A DNA stretch of 64,000 bases from Candidatus Thorarchaeota archaeon. Lineage in GTDB: Archaea > Asgardarchaeota > Thorarchaeia > Thorarchaeales > Thorarchaeaceae. The stretch covers positions 347,124-411,123 of the forward strand of contig RDOC01000001.1 in NCBI GenBank assembly GCA_011364985.1, in the 5' to 3' direction. Of the stretch, positions 3,040 through 54,403 are shown piece by piece. The notes beneath the pieces were generated by a model. It worked only from the letters and a program-made list of their open reading frames with translations, was not told where the DNA came from and made no database searches. Each line of letters starts with the position of its first letter. Position 1 is the stretch's first letter. Position numbers and translations under genes: made by a program.

Positions 3040-3615
3040 GTGGTTACAATGGAAAAGAATCCTTTCAATGCAATGATAATGTCAGAAGACACTATTGTCA
3101 CTGTGAAAGAGGGTGACAAAGAGAAGCAAGTAGATGCCAAACGCGACAAGATTCGCTATGTCGTGGGTGAGAGCCAAGAGAAACGATTCGTAGATGGTGG
3201 AAACGAAACACTCAAGCCCTTGGAGGACAAGACTGTCTATCTCGTACCAGCAATTCATAGACTTCCAGGAGACCCCTTCCACTACGATGCAACAATGGTG
3301 GAGAGAGTCGCTGGAAAGCATCAACTAGATGCAGCGACAAGGCTACTGAATCGCCATCCCGCCTGCGAATCTCATAATGTGATCGAAATCACCTATGAAA
3401 GCCCCGGTGTAGAATGCTGTACCATGACGAAGGAAGAGGCTGACAATACACAAGTACCTCTCCAATACGTCGCAGGCTACTATCTTGGAAAGAAGAACGG
3501 CCTTCTAAAGATCGCGTTGTCCAAGACTACAATAGAAGAATCGGGAAAGACATACTATGACAACATCCGGGTGATTCCGGAAGCAGTGGTCAAAGAGATG
3601 AACTGCCTGGAGTAG
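3040..3615 (+). CDS. hypothetical protein
   Basis: 191-aa ORF with protein-like acidic/lysine-rich composition. No recognised motif. Confidence 0.5.
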   Translation: MVTMEKNPFNAMIMSEDTIVTVKEGDKEKQVDAKRDKIRYVVGESQEKRFVDGGNETLKPLEDKTVYLVPAIHRLPGDPFHYDATMVERVAGKHQLDAATRLLNRHPACESHNVIEITYESPGVECCTMTKEEADNTQVPLQYVAGYYLGKKNGLLKIALSKTTIEESGKTYYDNIRVIPEAVVKEMNCLE

Positions 3616-3645
3616 ACATTTCGATACTGGCTCATGGAAACCATT

Positions 3646-3717
3646 GGTGAACACTCAATGCCGCAAGTATGGCTTGATCCACACAGCCATAAGGGAGGAT
3701 TCTATTGAGTGTTCACC
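3646..3717. repeat. perfect 14-bp inverted repeat forming a long hairpin with a nested 6-bp helix
   Basis: GGTGAACACTCAAT (3646..3659) pairs with ATTGAGTGTTCACC (3704..3717). Inner arms are ATGGCT (3669..3674) and AGCCAT (3685..3690). It sits 31 nt after the stop of the 3040..3615 ORF. Confidence 0.7.
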
Positions 3718-3918
3718 CACATGTTTTCTTCAGTCTGACAAAGGGTTCGGCTGAATCCATGTCGGAGAATAAACACGATCTATTCATAGATGCTTAGACT
3801 TATATACGAAAACAATAGCGCCTCCTGACACTCCCTAATTGGGGGCCGGTTTTAACCATTGATTGGTAGCCACCATATTCTCGGCCACATCCCAACGGGA
3901 AAAGACAAGGTGAAACCT

Positions 3919-4863
3919 ATGGCAAAGCCAGTTCGCTCAATGAACGAAAGGCAGAGAGGCATGAAAGTCTGTTCTATTTGTGGCGCCGATAAATTCTACG
4001 AAGATTTGTCCCGTGGTGAGAGTATTTGCACATCGTGTGGATGTGTGATTACTGAGAGGATTATTGATAATGGCCCAGAATGGCGCGCCTTTACTTCTGA
4101 AGAAAGAGATGCCAGAGCTCGAACCGGTTCTCCTGCAACCCTTACTATGGCTGACAAGGGACTCGCAACAACCATTGGCTGGAGCGACAGAGATGCAAAT
4201 GGTCGAGCAATTGCCGCAAGCTCACGTGCAGCTATTTACAGGATGCGTAAATGGCAGATTCGAACTCTAGTCCATAGTTCGCAGCATCGAAACCTCAGTA
4301 TTGCCATGAGCGAGATGGACCGCCTTACTTCACAATTGGGAGTCCCCCATGAAACAAAGGAGACCTCAGCCCTCATCTACAGAAAGGCCCTTTCAAAGAG
4401 GCTTGTCAGAGGACGAAGCATTGAGGGCATGGTTGCGGCTACTATATACTTGTCATGCAGAATTCATAAGATTCCAAGGCAGCTGGATGAAATTGTGACC
4501 GAGGCGAGAGTCAACAGAAAGGAGCTTGGTCAGTGTGTCAGACTGATTCTTCGGAACGTTGATGTTAAAGTTCCAATTCCATCTGCAAATGACCTAATGC
4601 CGAGGATATCCGCAGATCTTGGACTTGATGGCAAAACTGTACAGACAGCTATGGGAATCATAAATGATGCCAGAGAAAGAGGCATTACTGCCGGGAAAGA
4701 CCCTGGTGGACTTGCAGCTGCTGCCCTCTATATTGCAGGCATTATTACCAATGACCGTCGTACTCAGAGGGAAATTGCCGAGGCATCAAACGTAACAGAG
4801 GTCACTGTGAGAAATAGATACAAGGACCTCGCAAGTAGCCTTCAAATCACAATCAAGCCGTAG
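3919..4863 (+). CDS. tfb: transcription initiation factor TFB (TFIIB homolog), paralog 1
   Basis: N-terminal zinc ribbon CSICG...CTSCGCV, then IDNGPEWRAF and two cyclin-like repeats ending VTEVTVRNRYKDL. ATG 3919 is preceded by GGTGA. The track ORF begins at an upstream TTG (3859). Confidence 0.9.
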   Translation: MAKPVRSMNERQRGMKVCSICGADKFYEDLSRGESICTSCGCVITERIIDNGPEWRAFTSEERDARARTGSPATLTMADKGLATTIGWSDRDANGRAIAASSRAAIYRMRKWQIRTLVHSSQHRNLSIAMSEMDRLTSQLGVPHETKETSALIYRKALSKRLVRGRSIEGMVAATIYLSCRIHKIPRQLDEIVTEARVNRKELGQCVRLILRNVDVKVPIPSANDLMPRISADLGLDGKTVQTAMGIINDARERGITAGKDPGGLAAAALYIAGIITNDRRTQREIAEASNVTEVTVRNRYKDLASSLQITIKP

Positions 4864-4893: not shown

Positions 4894-5706
4894 ATGGCAA
4901 TACCAGATTCTTTTTCAGAGTTATACACCTTCGGAAGAACAATGAATCAGTTCATCGTGGCACTTTGCGGTATCCCAGCATCAGGGAAGACAATCCTAGC
5001 TAGAGTGATTCAGGAATTGCTTTCTGTTGAGACGGACGTAGTAATTGTCGATACTGACACCTGCAGAGATGAGGCGTATTGCTCTAATTTCACTCCTGAA
5101 TTAGAGAAGAAGGTAAGAAAGGAAGCCTTGAGAAGAACGGAGGAGATTGTTAAAAGCGGTCGTTCGGTCATTCATGATGATACCAATTACTATACGAGTA
5201 TGCGACACGAGCTCTATGAGATTGCGGTTAGGCATGGATGTGCATTTGGGGTAGTCTTTGTATCCACGCCACTGGAGAAATCATTGGAGTGGAATAGTCT
5301 GCGAAAAAAACCAATTCCAGAAGATGTTGTGAAACGCATCAAAGAGCGCATGAATACTCCTGGTACAAAATACACATGGGACAGCCCTGTAGCTATTGTA
5401 AACCTAAGCAGAGAGAAGACCATAGACGCAGCGAAGAATGTTGTTGAGTCGATTCGTGATCTTTCTCTGCCAAACATTGAAGGATCGCCAACTGCTGAGT
5501 CGAATGCTTACAACCAGATAGACTCTGTAACAAGAAGAGTAGTATCAGAATTCCTGCAGGAGTACCCATCCTACAGGTCTGACCCCAGAGTATCACGTCT
5601 CAGAAGAGAACTCCTTGTTGAGGCCAGAACTCTTCAATTGGAGGTTCGTGAAGTTGAACGGATGTTACGAGTACGTCTTGGAATTCTTGCGGACAGGACG
5701 TCTTAG
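4894..5706 (+). CDS. pstK: O-phosphoseryl-tRNA(Sec) kinase (PSTK)
   Basis: P-loop GIPASGKT, DDTNYYTSMRHELY, IPEDVVKRIKERMNTPGTKYTWDSP. This closely matches my recollection of the M. jannaschii PSTK pattern. It is convergent with tRNA-Sec, 5 nt away. Confidence 0.85.
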   Translation: MAIPDSFSELYTFGRTMNQFIVALCGIPASGKTILARVIQELLSVETDVVIVDTDTCRDEAYCSNFTPELEKKVRKEALRRTEEIVKSGRSVIHDDTNYYTSMRHELYEIAVRHGCAFGVVFVSTPLEKSLEWNSLRKKPIPEDVVKRIKERMNTPGTKYTWDSPVAIVNLSREKTIDAAKNVVESIRDLSLPNIEGSPTAESNAYNQIDSVTRRVVSEFLQEYPSYRSDPRVSRLRRELLVEARTLQLEVREVERMLRVRLGILADRTS

Positions 5707-5711
5707 AAAGA

Positions 5712-5802
5712 TGGCGGCCTCCTAAGAGAATCGAACTCTCATCGCTTGCACGATCGTGGGTTTGAAGTCCACGGGGCCGGACCACCAGCCCTGTAGGAGG
5801 CC
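5712..5802 (-). tRNA. tRNA-Sec: tRNA-Sec (anticodon UCA), 91 nt with encoded CCA
   Basis: The reverse complement reads GGCCTCCTA-CA-GGGCTGG-TGGT-CCGGCCC-C-GTGGAC-TTCAAAC.. . It has a 9-bp acceptor, 7-bp D stem with 4-nt loop, 6-position anticodon stem and loop CUUCAAA (UCA). The variable arm closes with a GCAA loop, the T stem is 4 bp with loop TTCGATT, and the discriminator is G followed by CCA. Confidence 0.9.
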
Positions 5803-5816
5803 TTGATTCTGGATGA

Positions 5817-5830
5817 AGATATATGAAAAT
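5817..5830 (-). promoter_or_regulatory. TATA-like box upstream of tRNA-Sec
   Basis: The minus strand reads ATTTTCATATATCT about 15-28 nt upstream of the tRNA 5' end. Confidence 0.4.
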
Positions 5831-5854
5831 AAGCTTGAGGGTCTGAATGATGAA

Positions 5855-6505
5855 CTACAGATACCGCGCGATGACTTCGTGCGTTTCCTTCTTCCATTCA
5901 ATGGTCTTCTTTGCTAACTCAGCAGCGATATTTGCGGGAGGAGATTCATCTCTGGGTAGAGATTCTATTTCTGACAACCAACCTGATGTCGATAGCGTCA
6001 GTGAATGCAAGTCCTCACCCTGTGTTGCCTTAATCATCATTTCCCTACCGTGTGCAAGCTGAATATATACATCATTCAGTGGAGCCTTATTGAGAATTTC
6101 AAAAATGAGCCGGTCCCAGCAGGTCTTTGCAACAAGTGCACGACGAAGCTTGGCTCGTTCGTCATCTGAGATGGTAGCGAATTTCTCCAAGTGTGCATTG
6201 AGAGCGGACTCAATCGTTTCGAGGTATTCGTGAATTGCTTTCCCATTTTTGCCCCAGACAGTAATCTCCACTGACCGCTGGGCCTCTTCAACCCAAATTC
6301 TAACATCATATTTCTGGGAATCAGCATCAACAGAAAACATGGCTTTGCCTTTGAAGATCTGGCTCTCAGCCTCACTGTACTCAGTCAGAAGGACTCCTGG
6401 CTTGGATGCCACTGTATACCAAGCTAGGCGGAACACCACAGCTGAATCGGCTATCTGGTAGCTTGAAGTACGACTGACCTCCGTCTTGTCACCGACTTCC
6501 TCCAA
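5855..6505 (-). CDS. uncharacterised protein embedded in the Sec operon (orf216)
   Basis: 216-aa ORF. Its TTG start lies 14 nt after the SepSecS stop and is preceded by GGGAGGT. It is co-directional with selB-sepSecS and is followed by tRNA-Sec. No recognisable domain. Confidence 0.6.
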   Translation of the reverse strand: MEEVGDKTEVSRTSSYQIADSAVVFRLAWYTVASKPGVLLTEYSEAESQIFKGKAMFSVDADSQKYDVRIWVEEAQRSVEITVWGKNGKAIHEYLETIESALNAHLEKFATISDDERAKLRRALVAKTCWDRLIFEILNKAPLNDVYIQLAHGREMMIKATQGEDLHSLTLSTSGWLSEIESLPRDESPPANIAAELAKKTIEWKKETHEVIARYL

Positions 6506-6519
6506 TGGCTGACCTCCCT

Positions 6520-7845
6520 TCAGGCTTCCGAGAGTAAACCTTTGACTTCCTTATAGAGTTTCGTAGTAGCTTTCTCAACATCACTTTTGGTAGCCCCAAT
6601 TGCCGAATTCATCACGATATAGCTGTGTGGATAGTCATCGATGCAGGATCCGTAAGCGCCCATTTCAACTGCTCTTGGACCAGTGACTCGCATGTTGTAG
6701 AGTCTTCCACCAATTTCGCGGACATCCAGACCATCCATTGTCATTGCCAAAGCGACAGGGTTTTCTACTGAAAGAACTCTTTGGCTCACTTCTTCTGCGA
6801 TTTCGTCTAGTCTGCATTCAAGGTATTTCTTATTTGCCTTCTGTTCCTCTTGTAACGCTTTGTATCTTGAGAAACCCAAGGACAATAACGATGCTAAGGT
6901 TTGAACAACTGGGGCAGCTGTTGCACGTCCAGCATAGGTTTCTGAAATGGCTTCGATAGACTCTTGGTGTGGAGATACAACGATTGACGCACCAACGGGA
7001 GTAAGGAAATTCTTATCACTGCTCTGGACAATGGCATCAACCCTTCCGGCGTCAATAGCAGAGCTTATGGCTTTCATTACTTCGTTGGACTGGACACCGT
7101 ATGCGTTATTGATTACAAACGGAATACTTGCATCCTGACAGAGTCTTGCTATTTCCTTAACAGGATCTGATTCACGTGGAGGGAAGAACGTGGTTGTTGC
7201 AAGGATAGCGACTGCTTTATTGTCTTTGATTGCCTTGGTAAGTGCGGACAAGTCAGCACAAACTGCCTCGCCCTCCAAGATTGTTGGTATTTCCATTTCC
7301 TTCAGTCCAGCCATTGCGATTCCGCGTTTAGGCGATTCATGATCAACACGCGGATAAAGGACGGTTCTTATGCCCTGTGTTCTTCGAAGCGCAGCCAGAG
7401 TCAGCGCAATTGACATGCCAGTTGAAAGAGGGGAGATGAAGCCACCTTTCACACTACCAAGGCCGAGCTTTCGAATTGCATCCAGGGCAACGCTGCTGGC
7501 TACCTGCTGCATCAGAGAGGCGCCAGGTGCCTTTGGCTGCGCTGCAGTTACATGCCCGCTCCGACCTATGCCATGGTTGAAACCACTAGATAGCATCCCG
7601 ACAAAAGGTGAAGCAATCCTGGCCTCGCGTTCACCCACGCGAGCGGCTTCAGGGTCCTTGTCTGTATCCATGGATGACAGAAGCTTCAGCAAGATATCTA
7701 ATTGCTCATCTGAAAGAGAATCATCTGGAAAGACTCGACGATTCAAGACGTCTCTTATTGGTGCTAAAAATGCATCAAGGGTGATTTCACCGCGTGCTGC
7801 GATACTCGGTGGCAGAACTGCTTTCAAGCGTTCATCAGCACCCAA
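6520..7845 (-). CDS. spcS: O-phosphoseryl-tRNA(Sec) selenium transferase (SepSecS)
   Basis: 441 aa with GEREARIASPFV, HGIGRSGHVTAAQPKAPGAS and the PLP-lysine context VQSSDKNFLTPVG. TTG start with a GGAGG Shine-Dalgarno-like ribosome-binding motif (SD) upstream. Overlaps the selB 3' end by 11 nt. Confidence 0.9.
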   Translation of the reverse strand: MGADERLKAVLPPSIAARGEITLDAFLAPIRDVLNRRVFPDDSLSDEQLDILLKLLSSMDTDKDPEAARVGEREARIASPFVGMLSSGFNHGIGRSGHVTAAQPKAPGASLMQQVASSVALDAIRKLGLGSVKGGFISPLSTGMSIALTLAALRRTQGIRTVLYPRVDHESPKRGIAMAGLKEMEIPTILEGEAVCADLSALTKAIKDNKAVAILATTTFFPPRESDPVKEIARLCQDASIPFVINNAYGVQSNEVMKAISSAIDAGRVDAIVQSSDKNFLTPVGASIVVSPHQESIEAISETYAGRATAAPVVQTLASLLSLGFSRYKALQEEQKANKKYLECRLDEIAEEVSQRVLSVENPVALAMTMDGLDVREIGGRLYNMRVTGPRAVEMGAYGSCIDDYPHSYIVMNSAIGATKSDVEKATTKLYKEVKGLLSEA

Positions 7846-9229
7846 AAGTCACATCCTCCGTCACAAATCTCTCATAAATCACTTCATCTTCTTCAGAAAC
7901 TGGCTCTCGAAACTCGATGCTTACAACACCTCTTGTGCCAAATGGGCTTCTAATAACTCCCTTGACACCTTTGGTTGTATATACTTCAGTACCAATAAGG
8001 GCTTCCGCAACTCTCTTGCTGGACGCCAAGCCTTGGACAAGTGCATCATCCTCTCGAAGACGGGTAACTGTGCCCAACCGTTTCCTCCTTTTGTGTAAAA
8101 CAATGGTATCAGAAATATCGGTTACTGTTCCAGCACCAATAATCCTCATCTTGGAAGGAGGAAGGTCTGTTCTTGTCAACAGGATCCTCATTCCCTTTTC
8201 CACTGCAAGAGGCTTATGCAGAAGAACAGTCAATTCAAGTTGCTTGTCGTCCACCTCATCTAGAACTACACGCTTGTTGTTAATTGATTCAAAAGGTACA
8301 ATCTCAGCTGTCACTGTGGCCATGGCGACGGTTGCGCTTACGATCATTCTATTTGTGATTCTTTCTCTATAGAGTGGATTCCTATCCAATCTTGCGACCA
8401 TAATCGAAATACGTGAGAGACTTCCTGGAAGGCAGAGATAGTCGCCTCTGCTAATGCTGTCATGGCTGAGTTCTGGTACGTTTATTCCCACTCTCTCTCC
8501 TGCACAGGCTCCTACCTTGGCTTCACCAAATGTCTGAAGGGAGCGAACCTTCCCAATTGCACCTTGGGGCATTATTTGTACCTTGTCACCGGTCGCAATT
8601 ACACCTCGCTGAATCGTTCCAGTTACAACAGTTCCATGCCCCTTTATTGGAAACACATGGTCTATAGGCATGAGAAAAGAGCTGCCAGTATCACGTTTCC
8701 TTGGTTCAATAACGTTCCGGAGCGCCTCCTTCAGCTGTTCGATTCCCGCCCCAGTCTTCGTTGAAACCTGCGTATATTCGACTCTGCGAAAGCCGGCGCC
8801 TTGCGTTATTTGTTCAATCTGATGTTTAATGGCGGACAATCTCTCAGGTCTTACTAGATCCGATTTAGTAATAACCACAACCATTGAATCAATACCCATT
8901 GACCTAAGAATCACAATGTGCTCTCCTGTCTGTATTTTTGGACCTTCATCTGCTGCTACAACCAAAATCGCCAAATCAATGATAGATGCACCTGCGACAA
9001 CGCTTCGGATTAGGTCGGCATGCCCTGGTGCATCCACCAGTGTTACAATATAATCATTAAGAGTGAACATTGTGAATCCGAGATCGATTGTGATTCCGCG
9101 TTCTTGTGCCTGTGGATGCCTGTCTAATCCAGCTGTGGATACCTTTTCGCTAAGTGCTTTGGCTAAAGCAGTCTTTCCATGGTCTATATGTCCAACAAGG
9201 CCAATATGGACAGGAACTAGGTCCTTCAT
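7835..9229 (-). CDS. selB: selenocysteine-specific elongation factor (archaeal SelB)
   Basis: 464 aa with GTPase motifs GHIDHGKT, DAPGH and TKSD, followed by beta-barrel domains. The size and operon context with SepSecS and tRNA-Sec fit aSelB rather than aEF1A or aIF2-gamma. Confidence 0.85.
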   Translation of the reverse strand: MKDLVPVHIGLVGHIDHGKTALAKALSEKVSTAGLDRHPQAQERGITIDLGFTMFTLNDYIVTLVDAPGHADLIRSVVAGASIIDLAILVVAADEGPKIQTGEHIVILRSMGIDSMVVVITKSDLVRPERLSAIKHQIEQITQGAGFRRVEYTQVSTKTGAGIEQLKEALRNVIEPRKRDTGSSFLMPIDHVFPIKGHGTVVTGTIQRGVIATGDKVQIMPQGAIGKVRSLQTFGEAKVGACAGERVGINVPELSHDSISRGDYLCLPGSLSRISIMVARLDRNPLYRERITNRMIVSATVAMATVTAEIVPFESINNKRVVLDEVDDKQLELTVLLHKPLAVEKGMRILLTRTDLPPSKMRIIGAGTVTDISDTIVLHKRRKRLGTVTRLREDDALVQGLASSKRVAEALIGTEVYTTKGVKGVIRSPFGTRGVVSIEFREPVSEEDEVIYERFVTEDVTFGC

Positions 9230-9377
9230 GATGTAGCGCCTTTCATCTCAGCTGTACACTCGCATAAAACCTTGGCTAAATACGAGATTTTTGACAGTGA
9301 GGAGAGAACAGGGCGGGAAAGAGAAATCGGTGTAATGAAGCGGGCGGTTTATTGGGAGGCTTGCTGAACACAGACCC

Positions 9378-9785
9378 ATGGTCTCCAGATCTCTAGAAAA
9401 GATGGTGTTGATGGCTTTAGGACTGACAACGGTTGTCATAATTGGTGTTCCGGCCTTGATGTTCGCAGTCAACACTCTTGGAAATATCACAGACCTTGAA
9501 AGGGCTGAGGCTTTTGCAACTGGACTGATAAACGAAACACGGCTCGTCGACATTGGGACTACAAATAAGACTGAACTCGCAGTTCTCATTCCGGAGTACG
9601 TAACAATATCCGCTAGTGAAAGCACTTTGACTATCACATTCACAAAAGAAGGAATTCCAGAAACTCAATGGAAAGACACATTCCTACACCCTGTAAGCCT
9701 TCTTGGAAGTACTTCTGCTGGGCAGTATTCCATGACTATCAGTTTGGTTGCAGGCACAATTGAAATCGTATTTGCTTCCCTTTGA
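9378..9785 (+). CDS. hypothetical membrane-anchored protein
   Basis: An N-terminal hydrophobic helix (MVLMALGLTTVVIIGVPALMFAV) is followed by a beta-rich soluble part. The N-terminus is pilin/archaellin-like, which is only suggestive. Confidence 0.45.
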   Translation: MVSRSLEKMVLMALGLTTVVIIGVPALMFAVNTLGNITDLERAEAFATGLINETRLVDIGTTNKTELAVLIPEYVTISASESTLTITFTKEGIPETQWKDTFLHPVSLLGSTSAGQYSMTISLVAGTIEIVFASL

Positions 9786-10957
9786 GGCTGGTCCTGTCCA
9801 TACTAACAGCAAAGGGACGAGAACCATTCAACACAATGTTTTTAATGCTGGCTCAAGTTCCGCGCCAATATCGCCCTTGCCGAGGACAAAATGCCATGGC
9901 CGAAGACAACGAAATGGCAGAGAAGCTAGATGTTGAAAAAGAGGATGCGAAAGAGGAAGAAACATCCTCCTCTGAAGATCTTTCGAAGAAAGAAACAAAG
10001 GAACCTTCTAGCAGATTCAAGATCAAGAACCCTGTTGGTTTCATTTTCAACCTGAGAATGCTACGTAGAGTGGTTCAGATTCTCTTCCTGTTAGGAATAA
10101 ATGTGTACATCTTTGCAGCATGGGCAGAAGGCGAGCAGATCATTGCCTTTTGGCAGGCATTTCGTGATATACTTCCAACGCTTCCGATTATAGCCCCGCT
10201 TGAGGGCTCTTTTGCCGTTCTAGCGGGCTCTTTTGACACACTTCAGCGAGAGTTCACCTCTGGAGTGTTCCCATTCTTTACCATCGGTGCCATGATTATT
10301 ATCCTTGCTGTTGTTGGTCGAACGAGTTGTGGATGGATTTGTCCAATAGGAACAATTCAGGATTTCGCAACTCTGCCCAAAAGACAAAAAGCACAAGTCG
10401 GACCAGACAGCGAGAAAGACGCTCGGAAATTCAAGGTTTACGTCTTTGTGCTTACGATGTTCTTTGCTCTTTGGGTCGGGTACAGCCGAGCGTTGGATAC
10501 CTCAGATACGCTTGTAGAAATACTCGGACCTTTTGCTGATGCAGCCTTCGATCCATTTAATCCGGCATACATCATATTTGTTGTATTGCCTGATCAAGCA
10601 TGGCCAACAGATATCAATACCCTCTGGTATTTCACGCAGTGGGGGTGGGCTCTTGCTCAGCTAGTCCTTGTTGCGCTTATTGTTGTTATTGCAGTTTGGT
10701 ACCCCCGTTGGTTTTGTAGATGGATATGCCCAGCTGGATGGTTATATAGCGTATTTTCGCGCGATGCGCTGATTGGAATAGGCAGAAATCCAGCAAGATG
10801 CACGCCAGATGTGTGCAATGTATGTGAAGTGGTGTGTCCAATGAATATTCGAATCAGAAGATATCCATACCAGCATATGTACTCTCCAGATTGCATCATG
10901 TGTCTTGAGTGCAAAAGCCATTGTCCAAACAAGGCCATTGAGATAAGGTTCTCGTAA
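9782..10957 (+). CDS. membrane-bound polyferredoxin (NapH/MauN-like 4Fe-4S protein)
   Basis: Multiple TM segments carry CGWICPIG and CRWICPAG motifs. The C-terminus has CNVCEVVCP and CIMCLECKSHCP ferredoxin motifs. The start is uncertain: TTG at 9782 or ATG at 9896. Confidence 0.7.
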   Translation: MRLVLSILTAKGREPFNTMFLMLAQVPRQYRPCRGQNAMAEDNEMAEKLDVEKEDAKEEETSSSEDLSKKETKEPSSRFKIKNPVGFIFNLRMLRRVVQILFLLGINVYIFAAWAEGEQIIAFWQAFRDILPTLPIIAPLEGSFAVLAGSFDTLQREFTSGVFPFFTIGAMIIILAVVGRTSCGWICPIGTIQDFATLPKRQKAQVGPDSEKDARKFKVYVFVLTMFFALWVGYSRALDTSDTLVEILGPFADAAFDPFNPAYIIFVVLPDQAWPTDINTLWYFTQWGWALAQLVLVALIVVIAVWYPRWFCRWICPAGWLYSVFSRDALIGIGRNPARCTPDVCNVCEVVCPMNIRIRRYPYQHMYSPDCIMCLECKSHCPNKAIEIRFS

Positions 10958-10970
10958 GATCCAAAAGGCC

Positions 10971-11312
10971 TCAGACTTCGCTGGCACGGTCAAATCCACC
11001 TTGCACCTTCGCGAACATCTGCATTAGTTTAAGTCCAAAATCCGTGACTTTCGCGCCCCCTCCGCCTGAAGGTCCGCCCTTGAAGGTTACAAGAATCTTG
11101 ACACCGAGGGTTGCCTCGATCTTGCGAATTACCCCCCATGCGTACCGATAGGACATTCCAGTCGATTCGGTGACTCCTGTAAGAGTACCCTTCTTGAGAA
11201 CATGATTCATAATGGCATATGCACCAGGTCCAAATACATATTTCCCATCAAACTCAAGCCAGAGTTTGTAGTTTGGTTTCAATTTGGAGAATGTCACATC
11301 TTCATCGTTCAT
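10971..11312 (-). CDS. ModE N-terminal-domain-like winged-HTH regulator
   Basis: 113 aa with the ModE-type HTH pattern TGMSYRYAWGVIRKIEATLGVKILVTFKGGPSGGGGAKVTDFG. Confidence 0.7.
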   Translation of the reverse strand: MNDEDVTFSKLKPNYKLWLEFDGKYVFGPGAYAIMNHVLKKGTLTGVTESTGMSYRYAWGVIRKIEATLGVKILVTFKGGPSGGGGAKVTDFGLKLMQMFAKVQGGFDRASEV

Positions 11313-11371
11313 TTATGGCAGCTCCAAGGGAGTAATCAAGCTAACGGCTCCAAAAGAAGAAGAAACTCAGA

Positions 11372-11599
11372 TCACGGACCCCATCTCATTCGTTCGCCTT
11401 TTGTATCTTTTTTGTATGCCTTCTTTACTTGTTTCCAGTGGTCGGCGCATAAGTAGGTTTTTCGTGAGCGTGCATCTTTCAGTTTCAACCCAGTTCTCGT
11501 AACACTTTCTGCAATACGTACAGTGGCAAATGACCTCTTTGATTCGTTGTTGCAACCGGCAATGCTGCATATCTTATTTGACGACGACAAATTCCTCAC
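11372..11599 (-). CDS. small C2CH zinc-finger protein
   Basis: 75 aa with a GTG start. Cys/His spacing is C-x4-C-x34-C-x2-H (CSIAGC ... CADH), and the C-terminus is basic. Confidence 0.45.
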   Translation of the reverse strand: MRNLSSSNKICSIAGCNNESKRSFATVRIAESVTRTGLKLKDARSRKTYLCADHWKQVKKAYKKDTKGERMRWGP

Positions 11600-11660
11600 T
11601 CATTGTCAGCTCCGAAGAGCATCATTATAACTATGACGGCCAATCACATTGAACTGGATT

Positions 11661-12641
11661 TCATCGTGGAGTAAGGATGGGCCCCTGAGAATAGTCAAAT
11701 ATCATCTTCTCCTCAGAACCAAGACGTAGTTTCAGCTCTTTGGTGTCATTTACCTCTCCTATTTCAGACACGGTGACGCCGTGAGCTTTGGCTATTTCAT
11801 GCACCTGTCCTAGATGTGCTTTCGCGGTCGAAACAAGAAATCCCAGAGATATGAACATTCTAAGCCAGTCCCTCATTGGAACATCATCCGGTCTATCCTT
11901 ATCGACGGCATCCAAGGATATTATACCACCCTTCTCGGAGTACTCAAGAAGCATACCAGCAGTACCAATGATGCCAGCTACCGACACGTCCTTTGCGGCA
12001 CTCAACAACTGGTTTGCTGCTAGATCATTCATTACGGAAAGACGCTCCATGAGCGTTGTGGATTCTCGTCCAGTGACGGAATCCCACCCTAAGTTGTAGC
12101 TTGATCCTCTTTGGCCCGTTTTGTCAAAGAGGAGCACAAGAAGATCGCCAGTCTGTGCGCCTCCTGCAGTCAGCATATTAGTCCTCTGGACAGTCCCTGT
12201 GGCTGATCCAACGACAAAAGTTGATGTCGCTATGGGATTAGTATGGCCTCGTACTATTGGTACCTGAAATGCGTGTGAGCCATCGATGAGCCCTTGAAGT
12301 AGATGTTCTCCGATGTCTTTGTCTGAGTAAGAGAGAGCAACAGCAAATGATGTGGGAACTCCTCCAGCTGCATAGATGTCCATTACATTTGCCAGAACTG
12401 CATTGAAACCAGCTGCTTGAGGATGTTCAAGGCAGAGCTCCTCGACAATGGCATCAGTCGTTAGGAGAATTACTTCGTTGCTCTCAGTCCCAATTGCTGC
12501 GGAGTCTTCGCCCAGTCCATGTGCATGATCTCCATGAAATGACTCAAGGCGAAGGCGCCTAATTATTGAAGGAAGTACATATTTCCTACTTATGCCATCA
12601 AAATCAAGAAGTCTGGCCACGATATCCTCCAGGCGGCTCAA
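11661..12641 (-). CDS. PurM/AIR-synthase superfamily protein, selenophosphate-synthetase-related
   Basis: 326 aa with GEDSAAI, LLTTDAIVEE, ANVMDIYAAGGVP and KDVSVAGIIGTAGMLLE. It lacks the SelD N-terminal Gly-rich Cys/Sec-x-x-Lys loop. TTG start. Confidence 0.7.
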   Translation of the reverse strand: MSRLEDIVARLLDFDGISRKYVLPSIIRRLRLESFHGDHAHGLGEDSAAIGTESNEVILLTTDAIVEELCLEHPQAAGFNAVLANVMDIYAAGGVPTSFAVALSYSDKDIGEHLLQGLIDGSHAFQVPIVRGHTNPIATSTFVVGSATGTVQRTNMLTAGGAQTGDLLVLLFDKTGQRGSSYNLGWDSVTGRESTTLMERLSVMNDLAANQLLSAAKDVSVAGIIGTAGMLLEYSEKGGIISLDAVDKDRPDDVPMRDWLRMFISLGFLVSTAKAHLGQVHEIAKAHGVTVSEIGEVNDTKELKLRLGSEEKMIFDYSQGPILTPR

Positions 12642-13164
12642 GAGCAGTCACCAGGCATATTTATGGAATCTACGGAGGAGATAGAAAAGCTAAAACATAG
12701 GCGGTCTGGCCAAGGATTATTCCTATGCCTAGCAACGTTAAGCCAACCATCAAATAGATGAGAGCCCTCATTTCAGGACAGATTTCTTCGAACAACTTTG
12801 CTCACCTAAGATAGTATGGCGTGACCTATGTGATGCTTATAGGCATTGTGCAATAAAGCACTCTCACAAAGCAATCAGCCAGATGACGATAAATGGTCGT
12901 TAGGATTCTAAGCCTAGTAAAAGATGTGTTTGCAGTCCCTAAATCTGATGATCTTTGTGCGGATGATAAGCCTTCGAAGAGTCCACCATACTGAGAACAT
13001 GAACTAATTCCTTTGACTCCTGTCTGATAAATATCCAGCTTTGTTTGGATTCTGTGTTACAGCTGTCAATCCCAAGAACATGCCCGACTGACGGACACCA
13101 TAAAGAAGCCAATGTTATCATCACTGCTCAGCAGCTGAACATGATGGTAGATGCCTAAATGAGG

Positions 13165-14985
13165 TCATCCGGAATATGACCACTTGGGAAGCCAAATCAA
13201 GAGTTCGATACCTTGGCTTTGATGGTTTGGTATCCTGTCACGTACGAGAATTCGCCCCCCATATTTGCGAATGATACTTATCGCCTGATGGACTCCAACG
13301 CCTCCAAAGCGTCTCTCTGGGTCAAAGAGAGACTCCTTTTCAGACTCGGTCAGACCTGGACCATTATCGCTTATCGATATTTCATACCCTCTCTCTATCT
13401 CGTTCACGGTGACCCAGATACACCTGACCTTCTTATTATTGTGCACAACAGCATTTTCCAAGATATTCATGAGCAGATGTTCAAGGTATCTGTCTGCATA
13501 GACTAATGGTTTCTGCACTTGTATGCCCAGCTCGACCTTGACATCACCATAAGTCGCACATAATTCTATCAGACACTCGTTCAGAACTACATCCAGCGGT
13601 CTTATGAAGAAGGGTGCTGTTAGTAGACCACGGGTGGATTGCATTTTCCTGATAATCGACTGTGAGATGTCTACTGACTCAAGGATGAGTTCAAACATTG
13701 GGTCAACATCAGCTCCGATGTCCATGTGCTTCATAATCTCTGTGGCCATGACAATTGCCTGTAGATGATTACGTAGGTCGTGGCCCATGAGATCCAAATA
13801 CAGCTCGGCTGTGTCTGCCGCAGCCCTAAGATCATGTTCTGCCCTCTTTCTCTTTGTGATGTCTGTAATAGCAACAATTACTCGGGAGAGATCTATTTTG
13901 CCATTGATGGCATATGACCTCCAATGTACAATGACTTGAATAGGATTACCTTTGAGCGTCTTTGTTGTGGTTTCGAACTCGATTCCGTATGTCTTGCCTT
14001 CCCAGATAGCAAGAAGCTCCTGTTTGAAGTACTCAGGAGAAACTTCAATGAGAACCTCGTTCAGGCGGCTCAATAGAGCTTCTCTGGTGTCAACCTCATA
14101 TATCTCCAGAGTTGCATCGTTTACATCAATAACTTCTACAAGGGAGATCACTTCAAGGATTGCCTCCGGATTGTCATCAAAGTACTTTACTAGGTCAGAC
14201 ACACCACTGGCTCGGAGCTTATCTAGCCATTCACTTGCTGCTCTAAAATCCTCTATCCAGATCGAAACCGGGCTGTATTTGAACAGGGCTTTGTATCTAG
14301 CTTCCGATTGTCGCATTGCCTCCTCTGTCCTCTTCTGGTCTGTGACATCGCGAATTGTTGCTAGATTGATCTTCTTACCTTCAAGTTCTACTAGGTCCTC
14401 ATTAAGCAGGGCATGGTACGTCGTTCCGTTCTTTCTTCTGAGCTCCACCTCGAAATCCCGAAGCCTTCCAGTTTCATGTACCTTGGCCAGAACTCTATTA
14501 CGATCTTCTTCATATACGTACAAGGCTGGAGCTTTCACACTCTCCAATTCATTCCGTGAGTAATCAGATATCTTTTCCATCCATTCATTTGCTGCGATGA
14601 AGTTACCATCAATGTCTGTAAGGACTATTGCTATTGGAGCTGTTTCAAACAGCATTCTATACCTACTCTCGCTATCTCTAAGTGCTTCCTCAGAGTCTTT
14701 GATCGCATGAAACAATGGTGCAATCGAATCCATACCAATCAACATAAGCACGGATATGCACAAGGCAATCAGCTCGGCCGCCAAGTCAGGTGGCAGCGTG
14801 AGGTCTCCTGAAATCAGTCGATACAGAGTGACAGCACGCCTAAAAGCCATCAAGAGAATAGCTGCTGCAATTAAAGTGAATGAACGTCGGTTTCCGGTTA
14901 TCAGGGTCAATCTAAAGGCCAAGACTGCTGATGCAATTTGAAACATGACTGATGTTATGAGAACAAATCTAACAATCAAGTTCAC
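13165..14985 (-). CDS. sensor histidine kinase with N-terminal TM region and tandem PAS domains
   Basis: The N-terminus has TM helices. PAS-like repeats are present (ESRYRMLFETAPIAIVLTD.., EARYKALFKYSPVSIWIED..). The H-box is GHDLRNHLQ and the ATPase motifs are NAVVHN and ISDNGPGL. Confidence 0.85.
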   Translation of the reverse strand: MNLIVRFVLITSVMFQIASAVLAFRLTLITGNRRSFTLIAAAILLMAFRRAVTLYRLISGDLTLPPDLAAELIALCISVLMLIGMDSIAPLFHAIKDSEEALRDSESRYRMLFETAPIAIVLTDIDGNFIAANEWMEKISDYSRNELESVKAPALYVYEEDRNRVLAKVHETGRLRDFEVELRRKNGTTYHALLNEDLVELEGKKINLATIRDVTDQKRTEEAMRQSEARYKALFKYSPVSIWIEDFRAASEWLDKLRASGVSDLVKYFDDNPEAILEVISLVEVIDVNDATLEIYEVDTREALLSRLNEVLIEVSPEYFKQELLAIWEGKTYGIEFETTTKTLKGNPIQVIVHWRSYAINGKIDLSRVIVAITDITKRKRAEHDLRAAADTAELYLDLMGHDLRNHLQAIVMATEIMKHMDIGADVDPMFELILESVDISQSIIRKMQSTRGLLTAPFFIRPLDVVLNECLIELCATYGDVKVELGIQVQKPLVYADRYLEHLLMNILENAVVHNNKKVRCIWVTVNEIERGYEISISDNGPGLTESEKESLFDPERRFGGVGVHQAISIIRKYGGRILVRDRIPNHQSQGIELLIWLPKWSYSG

Positions 14986-15401
14986 AGCCCCCCGTTCCTA
15001 GTGTAATGTCTCTGTAACACAAGATGATCAAACCATGAATCGGTAAGTGTACCTCGTGTCACGACTGACTTCTCGGTGCTGATGATTGTACCAAGGAGAG
15101 AATGTTCTCGTTTTGTGTTTGCTTTTGTGATATCCACTTTCTCAGGATTCAACTCCTGCAAGTTGGATGATGTACCATAGATGGCAGTTCTCCTTCCATT
15201 ATCCTTGTCAAGTACAGACCACACCAGCCTGTGTCCAATTTCTCTTACATCAATTTCGTATATCTCTGCCAAAAGCTCGAAATCATCTATTGTGCTTATT
15301 AGTGCCCTATTATAGACGCTAAGTGACTTGAGTGTCCGAGTTTCTCTTAGAGGAAATATATTCGATTCATTGCAAACTCTCATGTGTGAGGAATTCATCA
15401 C
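14982..15401 (-). CDS. hypothetical protein, 4-nt overlap with the downstream histidine kinase
   Basis: 139-aa ORF with a GTGA start/stop overlap with the kinase gene. No recognised motif. Confidence 0.4.
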   Translation of the reverse strand: MMNSSHMRVCNESNIFPLRETRTLKSLSVYNRALISTIDDFELLAEIYEIDVREIGHRLVWSVLDKDNGRRTAIYGTSSNLQELNPEKVDITKANTKREHSLLGTIISTEKSVVTRGTLTDSWFDHLVLQRHYTRNGGL

Positions 15402-15844
15402 ATCGCCCCGACTTCGAACGGCTGTTTGGTAGACATGGAAATCGATAGACCACAGTCAATAGACACTCCTTGTGGTAGATTTCGAGTCCTTCAAGGCTGG
15501 CGGAGGCCTTCTAAGGTGCAGTCATTCGCATGACTCCTGTCTATGCTATCTTTCGTTATGAGAGCCTAACATCCCTATCATTTTATGCCGCTAGATGGAT
15601 TATATGATTTGTTGGTAGATTCCCCCCATTCTTGATGCAGTCATAGCTTCAATATAGGAAGAAGTCCATAGATGCATTGAGGTTGCTTCTTGAGTGACGA
15701 ATCCCCTTCCAATCAGATGAGCCTTTCACAGTAATCTACTGCAATCGACAGATCAGTCAGCAACAACTCCTCACCAAGAGACGATTCTAGTCTCTTTCTT
15801 GGTTGTGGGCTTGTGCCAGTCAAGTACTCAACCTTCAAGTTCTC

Positions 15845-20389: not shown

Positions 20390-21391
20390 ATGGAAGCATT
20401 AATAGACATAGAAACGCAGTGCGCTTGTGGACGTGCCATGACAATAAAGAACATTGTGTATAATCAAAGTATCAAATTTATTCTCTCCGGCGGAAAAGGA
20501 GGAGTAGGCAAAACCAGCGCTGCAGGAGCAATGGCCGTCCTTTCTGCTAAGAGCGGACTAAGAACTCTTGTATTGTCGACCGATCCAGCGCACAGTCTTA
20601 GTGATAGCTTCAAGCAAGACCTCTCAGGAGGAGAGATTATACCTGTGGAGGGCATAGACAATCTGTGGGGCATGGAGATCAGCTCTGAGAAAGGTATGCA
20701 GGATTTTCAAAACGCCATGGATGGAGGAGGGACGGAGATGGAGATGGCGTCCCAACTTCTTGGAAGCATAGGAGATATGACTCCTCCAGGATCAGATGAG
20801 GCGATGGCCTTTGGGAAGATCTTGGAATTTCTTGATGATATGTCATATGACAGAGTCATTTTCGATACAGCGCCCACCGGTCATACACTTAAGCTACTTG
20901 AACTTCCCGAGCTATTGGACAGCTGGCTTGGAAAAGTCATAACAATGAGACAACGACTCAGTTCAACCCTTGCAGGAATTAGAGCCATGTTGGGCGGGCG
21001 AGAACAAGAAGAAACGGCATGGGAAATGCTTCAGCAAACAAAGGAGAAGATAAAGTCAGCAAAGCTGGAGCTACAAGACCAAGAGAAGACCCAATTTGTT
21101 ATTGTGATGATACCGGAAGCAATGGCGGTCTTCGAAACCCAGCGGCTCTTGTCCAGTCTTAATACATGGAATATCCCAATGAATAACATAGTCGTCAATC
21201 AGCTGATCCCTGAGAATCCGGGCTGCGAATTTTGCAGCTCAAGAAGACAAATGCAGCAGAGGAACTTAGTAGACATCCGCGACCTCTATCAAGATATAGA
21301 CATCGTAGAAGTGCCACTTCTTAACACAGAAATAGTGGGGATTGATAGTTTGGAGAATCTTGGCAGAATACTAATCGGGGAGGATCAATGA
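20390..21391 (+). CDS. get3: Get3/ArsA-family ATPase (tail-anchored protein targeting factor homolog)
   Basis: Deviant Walker A GGKGGVGKTS, STDPAHSLSD, DTAPTGHTLKLL, and a CxxC pair (GCEFCSS) as in Get3/TRC40. Confidence 0.85.
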   Translation: MEALIDIETQCACGRAMTIKNIVYNQSIKFILSGGKGGVGKTSAAGAMAVLSAKSGLRTLVLSTDPAHSLSDSFKQDLSGGEIIPVEGIDNLWGMEISSEKGMQDFQNAMDGGGTEMEMASQLLGSIGDMTPPGSDEAMAFGKILEFLDDMSYDRVIFDTAPTGHTLKLLELPELLDSWLGKVITMRQRLSSTLAGIRAMLGGREQEETAWEMLQQTKEKIKSAKLELQDQEKTQFVIVMIPEAMAVFETQRLLSSLNTWNIPMNNIVVNQLIPENPGCEFCSSRRQMQQRNLVDIRDLYQDIDIVEVPLLNTEIVGIDSLENLGRILIGEDQ

Positions 21392-23891: not shown

Positions 23892-24860
23892 TCAGACCAA
23901 GGACATTGTATCAATTCCCAGTTTGCGCACAATCTCTTTGTATCTATTTCTCACCGTGACTTCTGTCACGCGAGCTACTTCAGCAATCTCACGCTGAGTC
24001 CTGCGCTCGTCCATCATAATTGAGGCGACATAGATTGCGGCCGCAGCCAAACCAAGAGGGTCTCTTCCTATCGTGAGGCCCATGTCCCTGCTTCTCTCTA
24101 GAATCTCGACTGTTCGTAGTTGAACAGGACTGGAAAGCTCAAGCTGCGATGCGAACCTAGAGATGTAGTCAATAGGATTACTTAGCGGGATTCGTACATT
24201 TAGACTTCTAAGAAGAAGACGATAGCATTGCCCAAGTTTCTTCTTATCAATGCGTGAGGCATCAGCAACTTCATCTAATGGACGTGGTTTCTGGCGGATT
24301 CTGCATGCTGCATAGAGTGTAGCTGCCACCATCGCTTCTATTGACCTGCCTCGAACCAGTTTCTTCTGGATAGACTTGCGATAGAGCAGAGCTGCCAATT
24401 CTCTAATTGGCTGGGGAATACCAAGTTGTGAAGCCAAGCGCTCCAGCTCAGATAGAGCCTGAGCGAGATTACGGTCCATGGAACTATGAACTCTACTTCG
24501 AATCTGCCATTTGCGTAGTCTATAGATTTCTGACCGTCGCGTTGGACTGAGTTTCCTGCCGCTGACATCTCGATCCCGCCAATCGATTACTGTTGATAGA
24601 CCTTTATCATGCACAGTATATCTCATTGGCGCACCGACTCTGCTTCGAGAATCAGCCTCTTCAGAACTAAAGGCTCGCCATTCGGCGCCTGTATCAATCC
24701 TATGGTCAGAGAGAACAAGACCGCACCCCCCGCACACACGCTCTCCACGAGTTAGATCTTCGACGACTGATGAAGACCCGCACTCGGGACAGGATTTCAC
24801 ATCAGACTCGGGCTTGTGAAGACTGCTCCTTTCTGGAGCATCGCCACGTACAGGTTCCAA
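23892..24860 (-). CDS. tfb: transcription initiation factor TFB, paralog 2
   Basis: CPECGSS...CGGCGLV zinc ribbon, IDTGAEWRAF, two cyclin repeats, VTEVTVRNRYKEI. TTG start preceded by GGAGGAG. Confidence 0.9.
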   Translation of the reverse strand: MEPVRGDAPERSSLHKPESDVKSCPECGSSSVVEDLTRGERVCGGCGLVLSDHRIDTGAEWRAFSSEEADSRSRVGAPMRYTVHDKGLSTVIDWRDRDVSGRKLSPTRRSEIYRLRKWQIRSRVHSSMDRNLAQALSELERLASQLGIPQPIRELAALLYRKSIQKKLVRGRSIEAMVAATLYAACRIRQKPRPLDEVADASRIDKKKLGQCYRLLLRSLNVRIPLSNPIDYISRFASQLELSSPVQLRTVEILERSRDMGLTIGRDPLGLAAAAIYVASIMMDERRTQREIAEVARVTEVTVRNRYKEIVRKLGIDTMSLV

Positions 24861-26041: not shown

Positions 26042-26434
26042 TTACAGAATACCCTCTATTCGTCGTGCGATTCTTGTCATCATGAAGAACATATATCCAA
26101 TGTTGGCACGTTTCGTTGTTAAGACGGCAAGGAGAGCATCTTCTCCCGCATCACAGATGATAATGTATCCTGTTTCACCTTCAACGAGCATTCTCACAAA
26201 GGCGCCTCGTTTTAGCTGTTTGAACACTTTCCGCGTAGCTGTTTCGATTTGCGTGGACCGACCAGCTATGACGTCTTCTTCAGGTATTGTTGCAGCATCT
26301 TGGTCAGGAGGAAAATGTGTACAAATCGGTAATCCTTGCGATCTCGAAATGATAATACTAGCCTGCACATTATTCTGGGAGGCGCGACTGAGGTCTTCAA
26401 GTAGTTGTGTGAGCATTTCTGTCTTTGAGGACAT
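26042..26434 (-). CDS. Roadblock/LC7 (MglB-like) domain protein
   Basis: 130 aa. The pattern L..L......VQASIIISRSQGLPI ... ILVEGETGYIIICDAGEDALLAVL is typical of Roadblock/LC7. Confidence 0.65.
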   Translation of the reverse strand: MSSKTEMLTQLLEDLSRASQNNVQASIIISRSQGLPICTHFPPDQDAATIPEEDVIAGRSTQIETATRKVFKQLKRGAFVRMLVEGETGYIIICDAGEDALLAVLTTKRANIGYMFFMMTRIARRIEGIL

Positions 26435-28371: not shown

Positions 28372-28476
28372 CCTGGGCCATCATCCGAAACCCTTTATTG
28401 CTTGAAATCGACGGTCGAAATTGCTAAGAAGGAATGCGCGCCGCGGATACCCTTTATTGGCGCAGAGGACATTAAT

Positions 28477-32188: not shown

Positions 32189-32254
32189 CAATCAATAAAG
32201 CGGTGAATGCGAATAAAAGGAAGCTTGTATAGCACTTGAAGAATCAGTAGGATA

Positions 32255-54056: not shown

Positions 54057-54403
54057 GGCTCTGGAGCGGAAGCGCGACTGACGGTACTTGCCTAAGGACA
54101 AGGGCTGAGGAAGCTCCCAACTACTAGCCGATACTGGTCCTGTGAAAGCAGGGAGGCGAGAGCCTCGCTCTGGGAACAGAAACGATACCTCCAAGGCAGA
54201 TATGACAATGATGCGATCTTCAGAATCGCGGAGGACTGTATTGGATGGGATGAAACGGCCTATCACCAGGTAGCAATCTCAAGAATACACCGTTTACGAA
54301 TCGGCCGGAGGTGTAGGGTAGAGAGCATAGACTGATGTCGCAAGGTTCAGATTGGTAACGATCTGAATAGAACAAAATTGGGGCTATTCATCGCACCAGA
54401 GCC
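54057..54403 (+). ncRNA. rnpB: RNase P RNA (archaeal type A-like)
   Basis: The ~400-nt region has no credible ORF. The terminal P1 helix pairs GGCTCTGGAGCG (54057..) with CGCACCAGAGCC (..54403). The P4 5' strand is GAGGAAGCTCCCAA and the 3' strand is ATAGAACAAAATTGGGGCTAT (compare the consensus ACAGAACCCGGCTTA). An AACAGAAACGATACC element is CR-II-like. Confidence 0.75.

Follow-up and report, generated by a model that had tools for sequence, protein, structure and literature searches.

Does a gene that is locked into a selenocysteine (Sec) gene cluster necessarily serve selenocysteine alone? The question is raised by positions 4894-9229 of a 64,000-nucleotide stretch of DNA from a Candidatus Thorarchaeota archaeon (GenBank assembly GCA_011364985.1, contig RDOC01000001.1, positions 347,124 to 411,123), referred to here as the window, in which the genes for PSTK, tRNA-Sec, SepSecS and SelB all lie within 4.3 kb, together with an open reading frame (ORF) of 216 codons, orf216. 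No other uncharacterised gene is locked into the putative selB-sepSecS operon across Asgard classes. The segment is a native Thorarchaeia (Asgard) cluster for tRNA-dependent Sec synthesis and delivery of the archaeal/eukaryotic type, and orf216 most likely encodes a protein-binding accessory or adaptor protein with a role that extends beyond the Sec pathway; taken as a whole, we hold this explanation with high confidence.

Synthesis of Sec by this route begins when seryl-tRNA synthetase (SerRS) charges tRNA-Sec, with its UCA anticodon, with serine, and PSTK phosphorylates the resulting Ser-tRNA-Sec. SepSecS, a pyridoxal phosphate (PLP) enzyme, then swaps the phosphate for selenium from selenophosphate, the product of SelD, and archaeal SelB (aSelB) in its GTP form brings the Sec-tRNA-Sec to UGA codons of messages that carry a Sec insertion sequence (SECIS) in the 3' untranslated region. 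In the organism studied here, a SerRS encoded outside the cluster would charge the tRNA, and PSTK, SepSecS and aSelB would act in turn. It has long been asked how SelB locates the SECIS in archaea, and this is why orf216 matters; we know of no SECIS-binding protein in any archaeon. The SECIS of Asgard archaea has a eukaryote-like kink-turn while SBP2 is absent (PMC4989117, PMC11227280), so that some adaptor may be needed.

The cluster itself is of a known kind, as the Sec machinery of Thorarchaeia has already been published. A Sec system was described in Lokiarchaeota (Mariotti et al. 2016, PMC4989117), Sec use was then reported for Thor-, Sif- and Jordarchaeia (Sun et al. 2021, PMC9723677), and in 2024 the list grew to include Atabeyarchaeia and Freyarchaeia (PMC11291895). 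In a survey that covered over 400 genomes, the share of Sec users among Thorarchaeia was 77.4% (Huang et al. 2024, PMC11227280), and no tRNA-Sec has been reported for Odinarchaeia (PMC9723677). A first-pass annotation of the window, made from the letters alone, had presented Sec use as rare among archaea; this does not stand, since Sec machinery, selenoproteins and eukaryote-like SECIS elements of Thorarchaeota are in the literature (PMC11227280, PMC9723677). The published Asgard systems comprise the same set of PSTK, SepSecS, EFSec/aSelB and tRNA-Sec as the window (PMC4989117, PMC9723677, PMC11227280). Sec genes are not always linked (PMC9723677), and in Lokiarchaeum GC14_75 the machinery is found on separate contigs, except for EFsec and tRNAsec at ~6 kb (PMC4989117), whereas the window holds the full set in 4.3 kb.

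Within these 4.3 kb, the gene for PSTK (O-phosphoseryl-tRNA(Sec) kinase; 4894..5706, plus strand, 270 amino acids) converges on the tRNA-Sec gene (5712..5802, minus strand, anticodon UCA), with 5 nt between the PSTK stop at 5706 and the 3' end of the tRNA at 5712. The remaining genes share the strand of the tRNA. Archaeal SelB/EFSec (7835..9229, minus strand, 464 amino acids, four domains) overlaps by 11 nt (7835..7845) with SepSecS, the O-phosphoseryl-tRNA(Sec) selenium transferase (6520..7845, minus strand, 441 amino acids, TTG start). A spacer of 14 nt read from the sequence (6506..6519, minus strand, agGGAGGtcagcca), carrying a GGGAGG ribosome-binding site, leads to orf216 (5855..6505, minus strand), which is followed after a gap of 52 nt by the tRNA. 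From this layout, selB, sepSecS and orf216 would form one operon, and its promoter is presumed to lie in the 148 nt (9230..9377) that separate selB from the divergent orf135/NapH-like gene pair. The tRNA gene may have a promoter of its own, as an A/T-rich, TATA-like element (TTATTTTCATATAT, 5819..5832, minus strand) can be read upstream of it, centred ~24 nt from its 5' end. The ORF map and tRNA calls bear out the earlier description of a full Ser-to-Sec set in 4.3 kb in all its coordinates, motifs and spacings, and the overlap, the spacer and the 5-nt gap were likewise confirmed from the sequence. To our knowledge, the Sec genes of methanogens have not been reported as one compact cluster. 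The idea that the segment is a foreign island was rejected because its GC content is flat, ~0.46, across the region and because its gene order is inherited within Thorarchaeia.

Two of the three proteins of the pathway are identified by curated models above their cutoffs. SepSecS, with the motifs HGIGRSG, AAQPKAPGAS and SSDKNFLTPVG, scores 448.7 bits with TIGR03531 (cutoff 224.85) and 377.5 bits with Pfam PF05889 (cutoff 21.1). Its top solved structure is SepSecS from M. maripaludis (2Z67, 361 bits), to which HGIGRSG, QPKAxGAS and the PLP-lysine motif SSDKN(F/L)LTP all align, the PLP-lysine and both phosphate-loop motifs being identical, and a public protein that is 100% identical to the one in the window is already named SepSecS. 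The 441-residue protein is thus a SepSecS and not a generic PLP enzyme, as the first-pass annotation had proposed. That annotation had also taken the GTPase with GHIDHGKT, DAPGH and TKSD to be SelB rather than aEF1A or aIF2-gamma, and this too is upheld: it scores 275.3 bits with TIGR00475 against a cutoff of 242.25, and falls far below the cutoffs of its rivals (EF-Tu 155-168 bits, cutoffs 449-522; EF-1alpha 129, cutoff 540; aIF2-gamma 133-135, cutoffs 315-514). Pfam recognises GTP_EFTU, GTP_EFTU_D2 and aSelB_III (46.4 bits, cutoff 19), with eEFSec_4th slightly under its cutoff (24.2 bits against 27), and the alignment to aSelB from M. maripaludis (4AC9, 322 bits) runs over residues 3-454 and covers all four domains. 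For SepSecS, SelB and PSTK alike, the closest solved structures (2Z67, 4AC9 and 3ADB) come from the Sec systems of Methanococcales and Methanopyrus, and the matches run over the full length with the catalytic motifs conserved.

The third protein calls for more discussion. It carries GIPASGKT, DDTNYY and NTPGTKYTWDSP, and its best NCBIfam model is TIGR03574, selen_PSTK, followed by eukaryotic PSTK. The TIGR03574 score of 138.3 bits is under the strict cutoff of 290.5, and the model seems tailored to sequences from methanogens. This shortfall, together with a match of 119 bits to the Pfam KTI12 family, would allow the 270-residue P-loop protein to be read as an Elongator-associated ATPase of the KTI12 type, although we take the Pfam family concerned, PF08433, to span both KTI12 and PSTK. 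The only strong matches among solved structures are to PSTK from M. jannaschii (3ADB/3A4L, 101 bits, residues 19-259), with GxPxxGK(T/S) and DDTNYYxSMR conserved and the C-terminal tRNA-binding part included, and no KTI12 structure is matched at expect values (E) up to 1e-3. The gene also adjoins tRNA-Sec in 26 related loci and was lost jointly with it in two others, L002 and L033. A KTI12-type protein is therefore very improbable, and the earlier assignment as PSTK is supported by best family model, motifs, matches to PSTK structures and the association with tRNA-Sec.

The tRNA was called by ARAGORN as tRNA-SeC(tca) at 5712..5802(-), the sole tRNA call in the whole window, and it scores 58.3 bits with Rfam RF01852 against a gathering score of 47. 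Its single-sequence fold is far more stable than those of shuffled sequences (z = -5.1). The molecule has a 9/4 fold, a G discriminator (G73) and an encoded CCA, its 3' end reading GCCA. In an alignment of 26 orthologous tRNAs, the acceptor stem has 9 bp, the D stem 7 bp with a loop of 4 nt, the anticodon stem 6 bp, the variable arm 5 bp and the T stem 4 bp; compensatory changes occur at 12 of the 31 pairs, and the tRNA of the window has the consensus at positions invariant in the orthologues and keeps every consensus pair. The earlier call of a UCA-anticodon tRNA with a 9/4 fold is thus supported by ARAGORN, by the consensus structure and by RF01852, the covariance-model check proposed for it. 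Its stem lengths are the same as the published hallmarks of archaeal tRNA-Sec (PMC4989117), and the 9/4 fold, 7-bp D stem, 4-nt D loop and G discriminator are those of other Asgard Sec tRNAs. The tRNA of Lokiarchaeum GC14_75 has an intron, whereas that of the window is uninterrupted.

Machinery alone does not amount to the whole Sec trait. Huang et al. 2024 recognise it by at least three machinery genes, tRNA-Sec among them, plus at least one selenoprotein gene. The window holds PSTK, SepSecS, SelB and tRNA-Sec, while SelD and a selenoprotein gene with in-frame UGA and SECIS were not found within the 64 kb. A domain scan and selD models gave no SelD in the window, in agreement with the first-pass annotation. 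The AIR-synthase-like protein at 11661..12641 (minus strand; Pfam AIRS and AIRS_C) was considered as SelD and rejected: it scores 35.6 bits with TIGR00476 (selD) against a cutoff of 125, has neither an N-terminal Cys nor an upstream in-frame TGA, and scores best with the methanogenesis-marker-2 and sll0787 models, without reaching the cutoff of either. The same gene is syntenic with the Sec cluster in loci of the Thor type and in loci related to Atabeyarchaeia, where it comes directly after the orf216 homologue. In the search for selenoprotein genes, all in-frame-TGA pairs in the window proved to be adjacent separate genes or spurious ORFs, and a permissive Rfam scan of the window gave no SECIS. 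An HdrA-like flavo-iron-sulfur ORF (28348..30441, plus strand, 697 amino acids), with Pyr_redox_2 and several 4Fe-4S domains, was rejected as a selenoprotein as it has no in-frame TGA; no FrhD/MvhD gene adjoins it. Among Asgard selenoproteins HdrA is a major family, and HypD, for hydrogenase maturation, is encoded near the HdrA-like ORF (31103..32191, minus strand).

As SelD, selenoprotein genes and SECIS are missing from the window, Sec use by the source genome rests on the intact machinery and on the published surveys. Their absence, and the fact that related lineages demonstrably lose Sec genes, could also be taken to mean that the cluster is a decaying relic and Sec no longer used. We regard this as very improbable. 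All four components are full length with intact catalytic motifs, the tRNA keeps its invariant positions and every consensus pair of the 26 orthologues, and among intact loci the ratio of nonsynonymous to synonymous substitution rates (dN/dS) of SepSecS is 0.06-0.12; in addition, 77% of Thorarchaeia genomes are reported to be those of Sec users (PMC11227280).

The first-pass annotation had left orf216 anonymous, which it is not: it belongs to the NCBIfam family NF045535, 'Sel_Asgard, putative selenocysteine system protein', with 236.1 bits against a cutoff of 132. Its product is 100% identical to a protein of a public Candidatus Thorarchaeota metagenome-assembled genome. The family has only 20 representatives among 1.84 billion clustered proteins, and all homologues found in that search lie on Asgard-type contigs. 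Huang et al. 2024 (PMC11227280) devote one sentence to an Asgard-only hypothetical protein often found near secS, efSec and pstk. This protein (e.g. MBD3157761.1) probably belongs to NF045535; it was not found in the supplements of that paper, and no mention of a protein of this type was found in the other papers searched. Neither Pfam nor, at E up to 10, the sequences of solved structures gave a match to orf216. The family members that were aligned are acidic (median isoelectric point, pI, 5.2) and share no conserved cysteine, which argues against both a selenium carrier and a classical RNA-binding protein. Neither an enzyme-like signature nor a recognisable RNA-binding domain was found in orf216. 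Its invariant residues are F25, D131, R154, E155, W204 and K205, most of which fall in the helical domain.

This domain is part of an AlphaFold2 model computed from a 30-sequence alignment, with a predicted local distance difference test score (pLDDT) of 93.4 and a predicted template modelling score of 0.90. The model predicts an N-terminal alpha/beta domain (residues 8-85) and a C-terminal five-helix bundle (residues 88-215). A Foldseek search against the PDB returned nothing with E below 1e-3. Below that level, the N-terminal domain resembles generic two-layer alpha/beta modules that bind proteins, such as DcrB, Eag chaperones, domain 4 of phosphoglucomutase and KA1, and the C-terminal bundle resembles generic four-helix bundles, for example the C-terminal domain of Vps28. 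The top full-length hit was RnlA (PDB 7AEX, 6Y2S; E 1.5e-3), in which, as in orf216, an alpha/beta domain precedes a helical bundle. Kinship with its NRD-HEPN part was nevertheless rejected, with a TM-score of 0.27 and an hhalign probability of 0.05% against E. coli RnlA; the Rx4-6H HEPN motif is not found in orf216, whose conserved motif is R154-E-x3-K159. One protein from the search for representatives, P0123 (268 amino acids), begins with an unrelated part of 140 residues and continues as the C-terminal half of a homologue of orf216 (52% identity over residues 89-216); this could be an artefact of gene calling or assembly, or a real fusion.

The setting of orf216 was compared across 8 genome and 24 metagenome loci, fetched with orf216 or its alignment and cited here by locus number. 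Among these loci of the Thorarchaeia (Thor) type, the full order Fer4/orf135 | SelB-SepSecS-orf216-tRNASec | PSTK-TFB is present in five of the eight genome loci and ten of the 24 metagenome loci, and most other metagenome loci have the same gene order interrupted by the end of the contig. A triad of aSelB, SepSecS and an orf216 homologue is also found in L045, which comes from the complete Atabeyarchaeia genome CP147779.1, and in two loci related to it, L043 and L047. There the triad is followed by the AIR-synthase-like gene, a gene for a 75-residue zinc-finger protein, TFB and PSTK, so that the block of AIRS-like and zinc-finger genes stands on the other side of the triad from its place in Thor loci. 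The orf216 homologue of this Atabeyarchaeia/Njordarchaeia group (P0140) is only 24% identical, and the NF045535 family is also present in Njordarchaeia. Wherever the two genes are linked, orf216 is immediately 3' of sepSecS at a distance of 14-50 nt. Shared by both lineages at this low identity, the triad must be older than the split between Thorarchaeia and Atabeyarchaeia.

Distant homologues of orf216 also occur in loci that have no Sec genes. Two of these are labelled Candidatus Odinarchaeia by NCBI, and in the P0129 group the homologue adjoins TFB. Homologues outside Sec clusters score 108-125 bits, just under the NF045535 cutoff, and every locus compared, also where Sec genes are missing (checked for the P0129 type), retains the six invariant residues. 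A wider gene order, PhoU_div-endA ... AIRS-like-ZnF ... TFB, where ZnF is the zinc-finger gene, is common to Thor, Atabeyarchaeia-related and, in part, Odinarchaeia-type loci.

The most informative loci are those in which the Sec genes have been deleted in place while orf216 remains intact. There are at least three of these among the Thor-type loci: L002, L033 and L028. Compared with L001, locus L002 (7836..8740) lacks SelB and SepSecS (2.7 kb) as well as tRNA-Sec and PSTK (1 kb), with ~68 nt of the SepSecS 3' end left behind. The same four genes are missing from L033 (5726..6740) in comparison with L031, with ~190 nt of the SepSecS 3' end left; the orf216 proteins of these two loci are 88% identical. 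Both L002 and L033 retain the order orf135 | orf216 | TFB. In locus L008 the contig end (1..200) makes only the absence of tRNA-Sec and PSTK visible. No tRNA-Sec was found by an Rfam scan of L002, L033 and the other loci that lack Sec genes. Like orf216, the genes for the AIRS-like and zinc-finger proteins stay where the four Sec genes are gone.

In locus L028 the loss is partial. Compared with L034 and L027, it lacks SelB and most of SepSecS, while orf216, tRNA-Sec and PSTK are left. A chimeric ORF of 90 amino acids (5673..5945, plus strand), made of SelB codons 1-11 and the last ~60 codons of SepSecS, lies directly ahead of an intact orf216 whose reading context is preserved; this chimera is the scar of an in-place deletion. 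The tRNA-Sec of L028 (6674..6764, plus strand) has two unique changes at otherwise invariant positions, a G-to-T change in the D loop and a broken C7 pair in the acceptor stem, which suggests that it is in early decay.

Selection on orf216 can be followed through these events. The gene is full length in L002, L033 and L028, with the six invariant residues in each, and the region equivalent to 9230..9377 is retained ahead of it in L002 and L028. Pairwise dN/dS of orf216 is 0.08-0.11 in L033 and L028, the two testable loci, against 0.06-0.22 in loci with the full cluster. The remnant of SepSecS, by comparison, has a dN/dS of 0.27-0.32, against 0.06-0.12 when the gene is intact. Natural deletions of this kind amount to a free genetic experiment on orf216.

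What, then, does orf216 do? Because it is spared in the deletions, is under purifying selection and has homologues in Odinarchaeia, for which no tRNA-Sec has been reported, its function appears not to be confined to Sec, and it is probably not a dedicated core Sec factor. Were it one, it could be an adaptor between aSelB and the SECIS that stands in for SBP2, or a scaffold on which tRNA-Sec passes from PSTK or SepSecS to aSelB. Its constant place immediately 3' of sepSecS, behind a short spacer with a ribosome-binding site, would suit such a factor, as would the survival of the triad in both Thorarchaeia and Atabeyarchaeia-related loci, with an orf216 identity of 24% and rearranged neighbours. 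The restriction of so small a family (20 representatives among 1.84 billion proteins) to Asgard archaea, which have a eukaryote-like SECIS but no SBP2 (PMC4989117, PMC11227280), points the same way, and NCBI curators named the family for the selenocysteine system. These arguments meet the retention of orf216 with its expression signals and a low dN/dS in at least three loci where SelB and SepSecS, with or without tRNA-Sec and PSTK, were deleted in place, and the invariant residues (checked for the P0129 type) of homologues in Sec-gene-free loci of the Odinarchaeia-labelled and P0129 types. A likeness to SBP2 is hypothetical; orf216 is acidic (pI ~5.2), has no recognisable RNA-binding domain and, in the Foldseek list, no similarity to the L7Ae domain of SBP2, nor any other similarity to it in sequence or fold. 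On balance we consider a dedicated Sec factor unlikely. Methanogens offer an analogy in SepCysE, the scaffold for SepRS and SepCysS in the transsulfursome. Like SepCysE, orf216 is small, without an enzymatic signature, and encoded beside the gene for a tRNA-dependent PLP enzyme that converts O-phosphoserine (Sep), so that a comparable role might be imagined for it.

At the other extreme, orf216 may be a bystander, a conserved gene of the Asgard backbone, possibly together with its basic zinc-finger neighbour, which owes its position to inherited gene order and not to function. The PhoU_div-endA ... AIRS-like-ZnF ... TFB order across lineages would fit, as would the persistence of orf216, AIRS-like and zinc-finger genes when the four Sec genes go, the pairing of the Odinarchaeia-type homologue with the zinc-finger gene instead, and the homologues outside Sec clusters that fall under the cutoff (108-125 bits) yet keep the invariant residues. 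This account has difficulty with the operon-level coupling to sepSecS, which holds in two classes although the AIRS-like/ZnF block changed sides; chance linkage at 14-50 nt is unlikely to last so long. We see it as a possible but doubtful explanation, and prefer an accessory or adaptor with a role beyond Sec. A more speculative proposal, which we think rather improbable, runs as follows: orf216, perhaps with its C2CH zinc-finger neighbour, would couple aSelB to the SECIS or channel tRNA-Sec from SepSecS to aSelB, in an SBP2-like role, and would persist without Sec genes because it also served translation or tRNA handling more generally. Several observations weigh against our own explanation. 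The genomes that bear the deletions are known here from these loci, and Sec genes may be present in other parts of them; that orf216 and sepSecS are tightly coupled in two classes argues for some link to the Sec pathway; the comparison of the family covers Thorarchaeia, Atabeyarchaeia, Njordarchaeia and Odinarchaeia, while the most Sec-rich class is Lokiarchaeia; and, for the cluster as a whole, PSTK falls short of its curated cutoff and the 64 kb hold no SelD, selenoprotein gene or SECIS. We nonetheless prefer to think of orf216 as an accessory protein with a broader role, rather than as a core Sec factor, and the deletions counsel caution with the database name 'selenocysteine system protein', which they suggest overstates what is known.

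The zinc-finger gene that accompanies the orf216 family lies at 11372..11599 (minus strand) in the window and encodes a protein of 75 amino acids with a pI of 10.4 and the pattern C-x4-C...C-x2-H. Members of this family have ~70-75 residues with an invariant C-x4-C ... C-x2-H-[WY]-K-x2-KK, and homologues were located in L009 (8695..8910), L042 (8699..8911), L015 (818..1036) and L045 (~12223..12450). In Odinarchaeia-type loci the gene is directly downstream of the orf216 homologue, while the distance is ~1.5 kb in the Atabeyarchaeia-related L045 and L047 and ~5 kb in Thor loci. A family search with the protein gave THAP and SAP30 zinc-finger matches that were sub-threshold only, and its single-sequence AlphaFold model was unusable (pLDDT 48).

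On the far side of the divergent intergenic region, orf135 (9378..9785, plus strand, 135 amino acids, with an N-terminal membrane helix) runs divergently from selB and overlaps the start of a NapH/MauN-like membrane polyferredoxin (Fer4_5; 9782..10957, plus strand), next to which is a ModE-like winged-helix protein of 113 amino acids (10971..11312, minus strand). All Thor-type loci share this block of three genes in synteny, whether they have Sec genes or not. Of the two TFB (TFIIB) paralogues in the window, at 3859..4863 (plus strand) and 23892..24860 (minus strand), the first forms the conserved border of the Sec cluster, and L003 and L004 have two TFB copies side by side in this position. 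A different neighbourhood is seen in L040, from a Thor-related lineage with an orf216 that is 43% identical, where a 1-Cys peroxiredoxin (AhpC-TSA) and a FUR-family regulator stand between orf134 and selB (3551..4766); Prx-like proteins are a common selenoprotein family of Asgard archaea. In L012, an archaeal 16S rRNA gene (11204..12705, minus strand) is found 2.6 kb from P0129 on a 320-kb contig and could place this Sec-gene-free lineage taxonomically.

Further from the cluster, the PAS histidine kinase (13165..14985), ArsA/Get3 (20390..21391) and Roadblock (26042..26434) genes that had been noted as its neighbours are all present. Two sub-threshold matches to small RNAs of the C/D-box kind, one SNORD61-like (15336..15404, minus strand) and one sR2-like (37164..37233, plus strand), both with E of 3-5, are probably due to chance. 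The archaeal RNase P RNA is encoded at 54062..54398 (plus strand), where Rfam recognises it with 156 bits.

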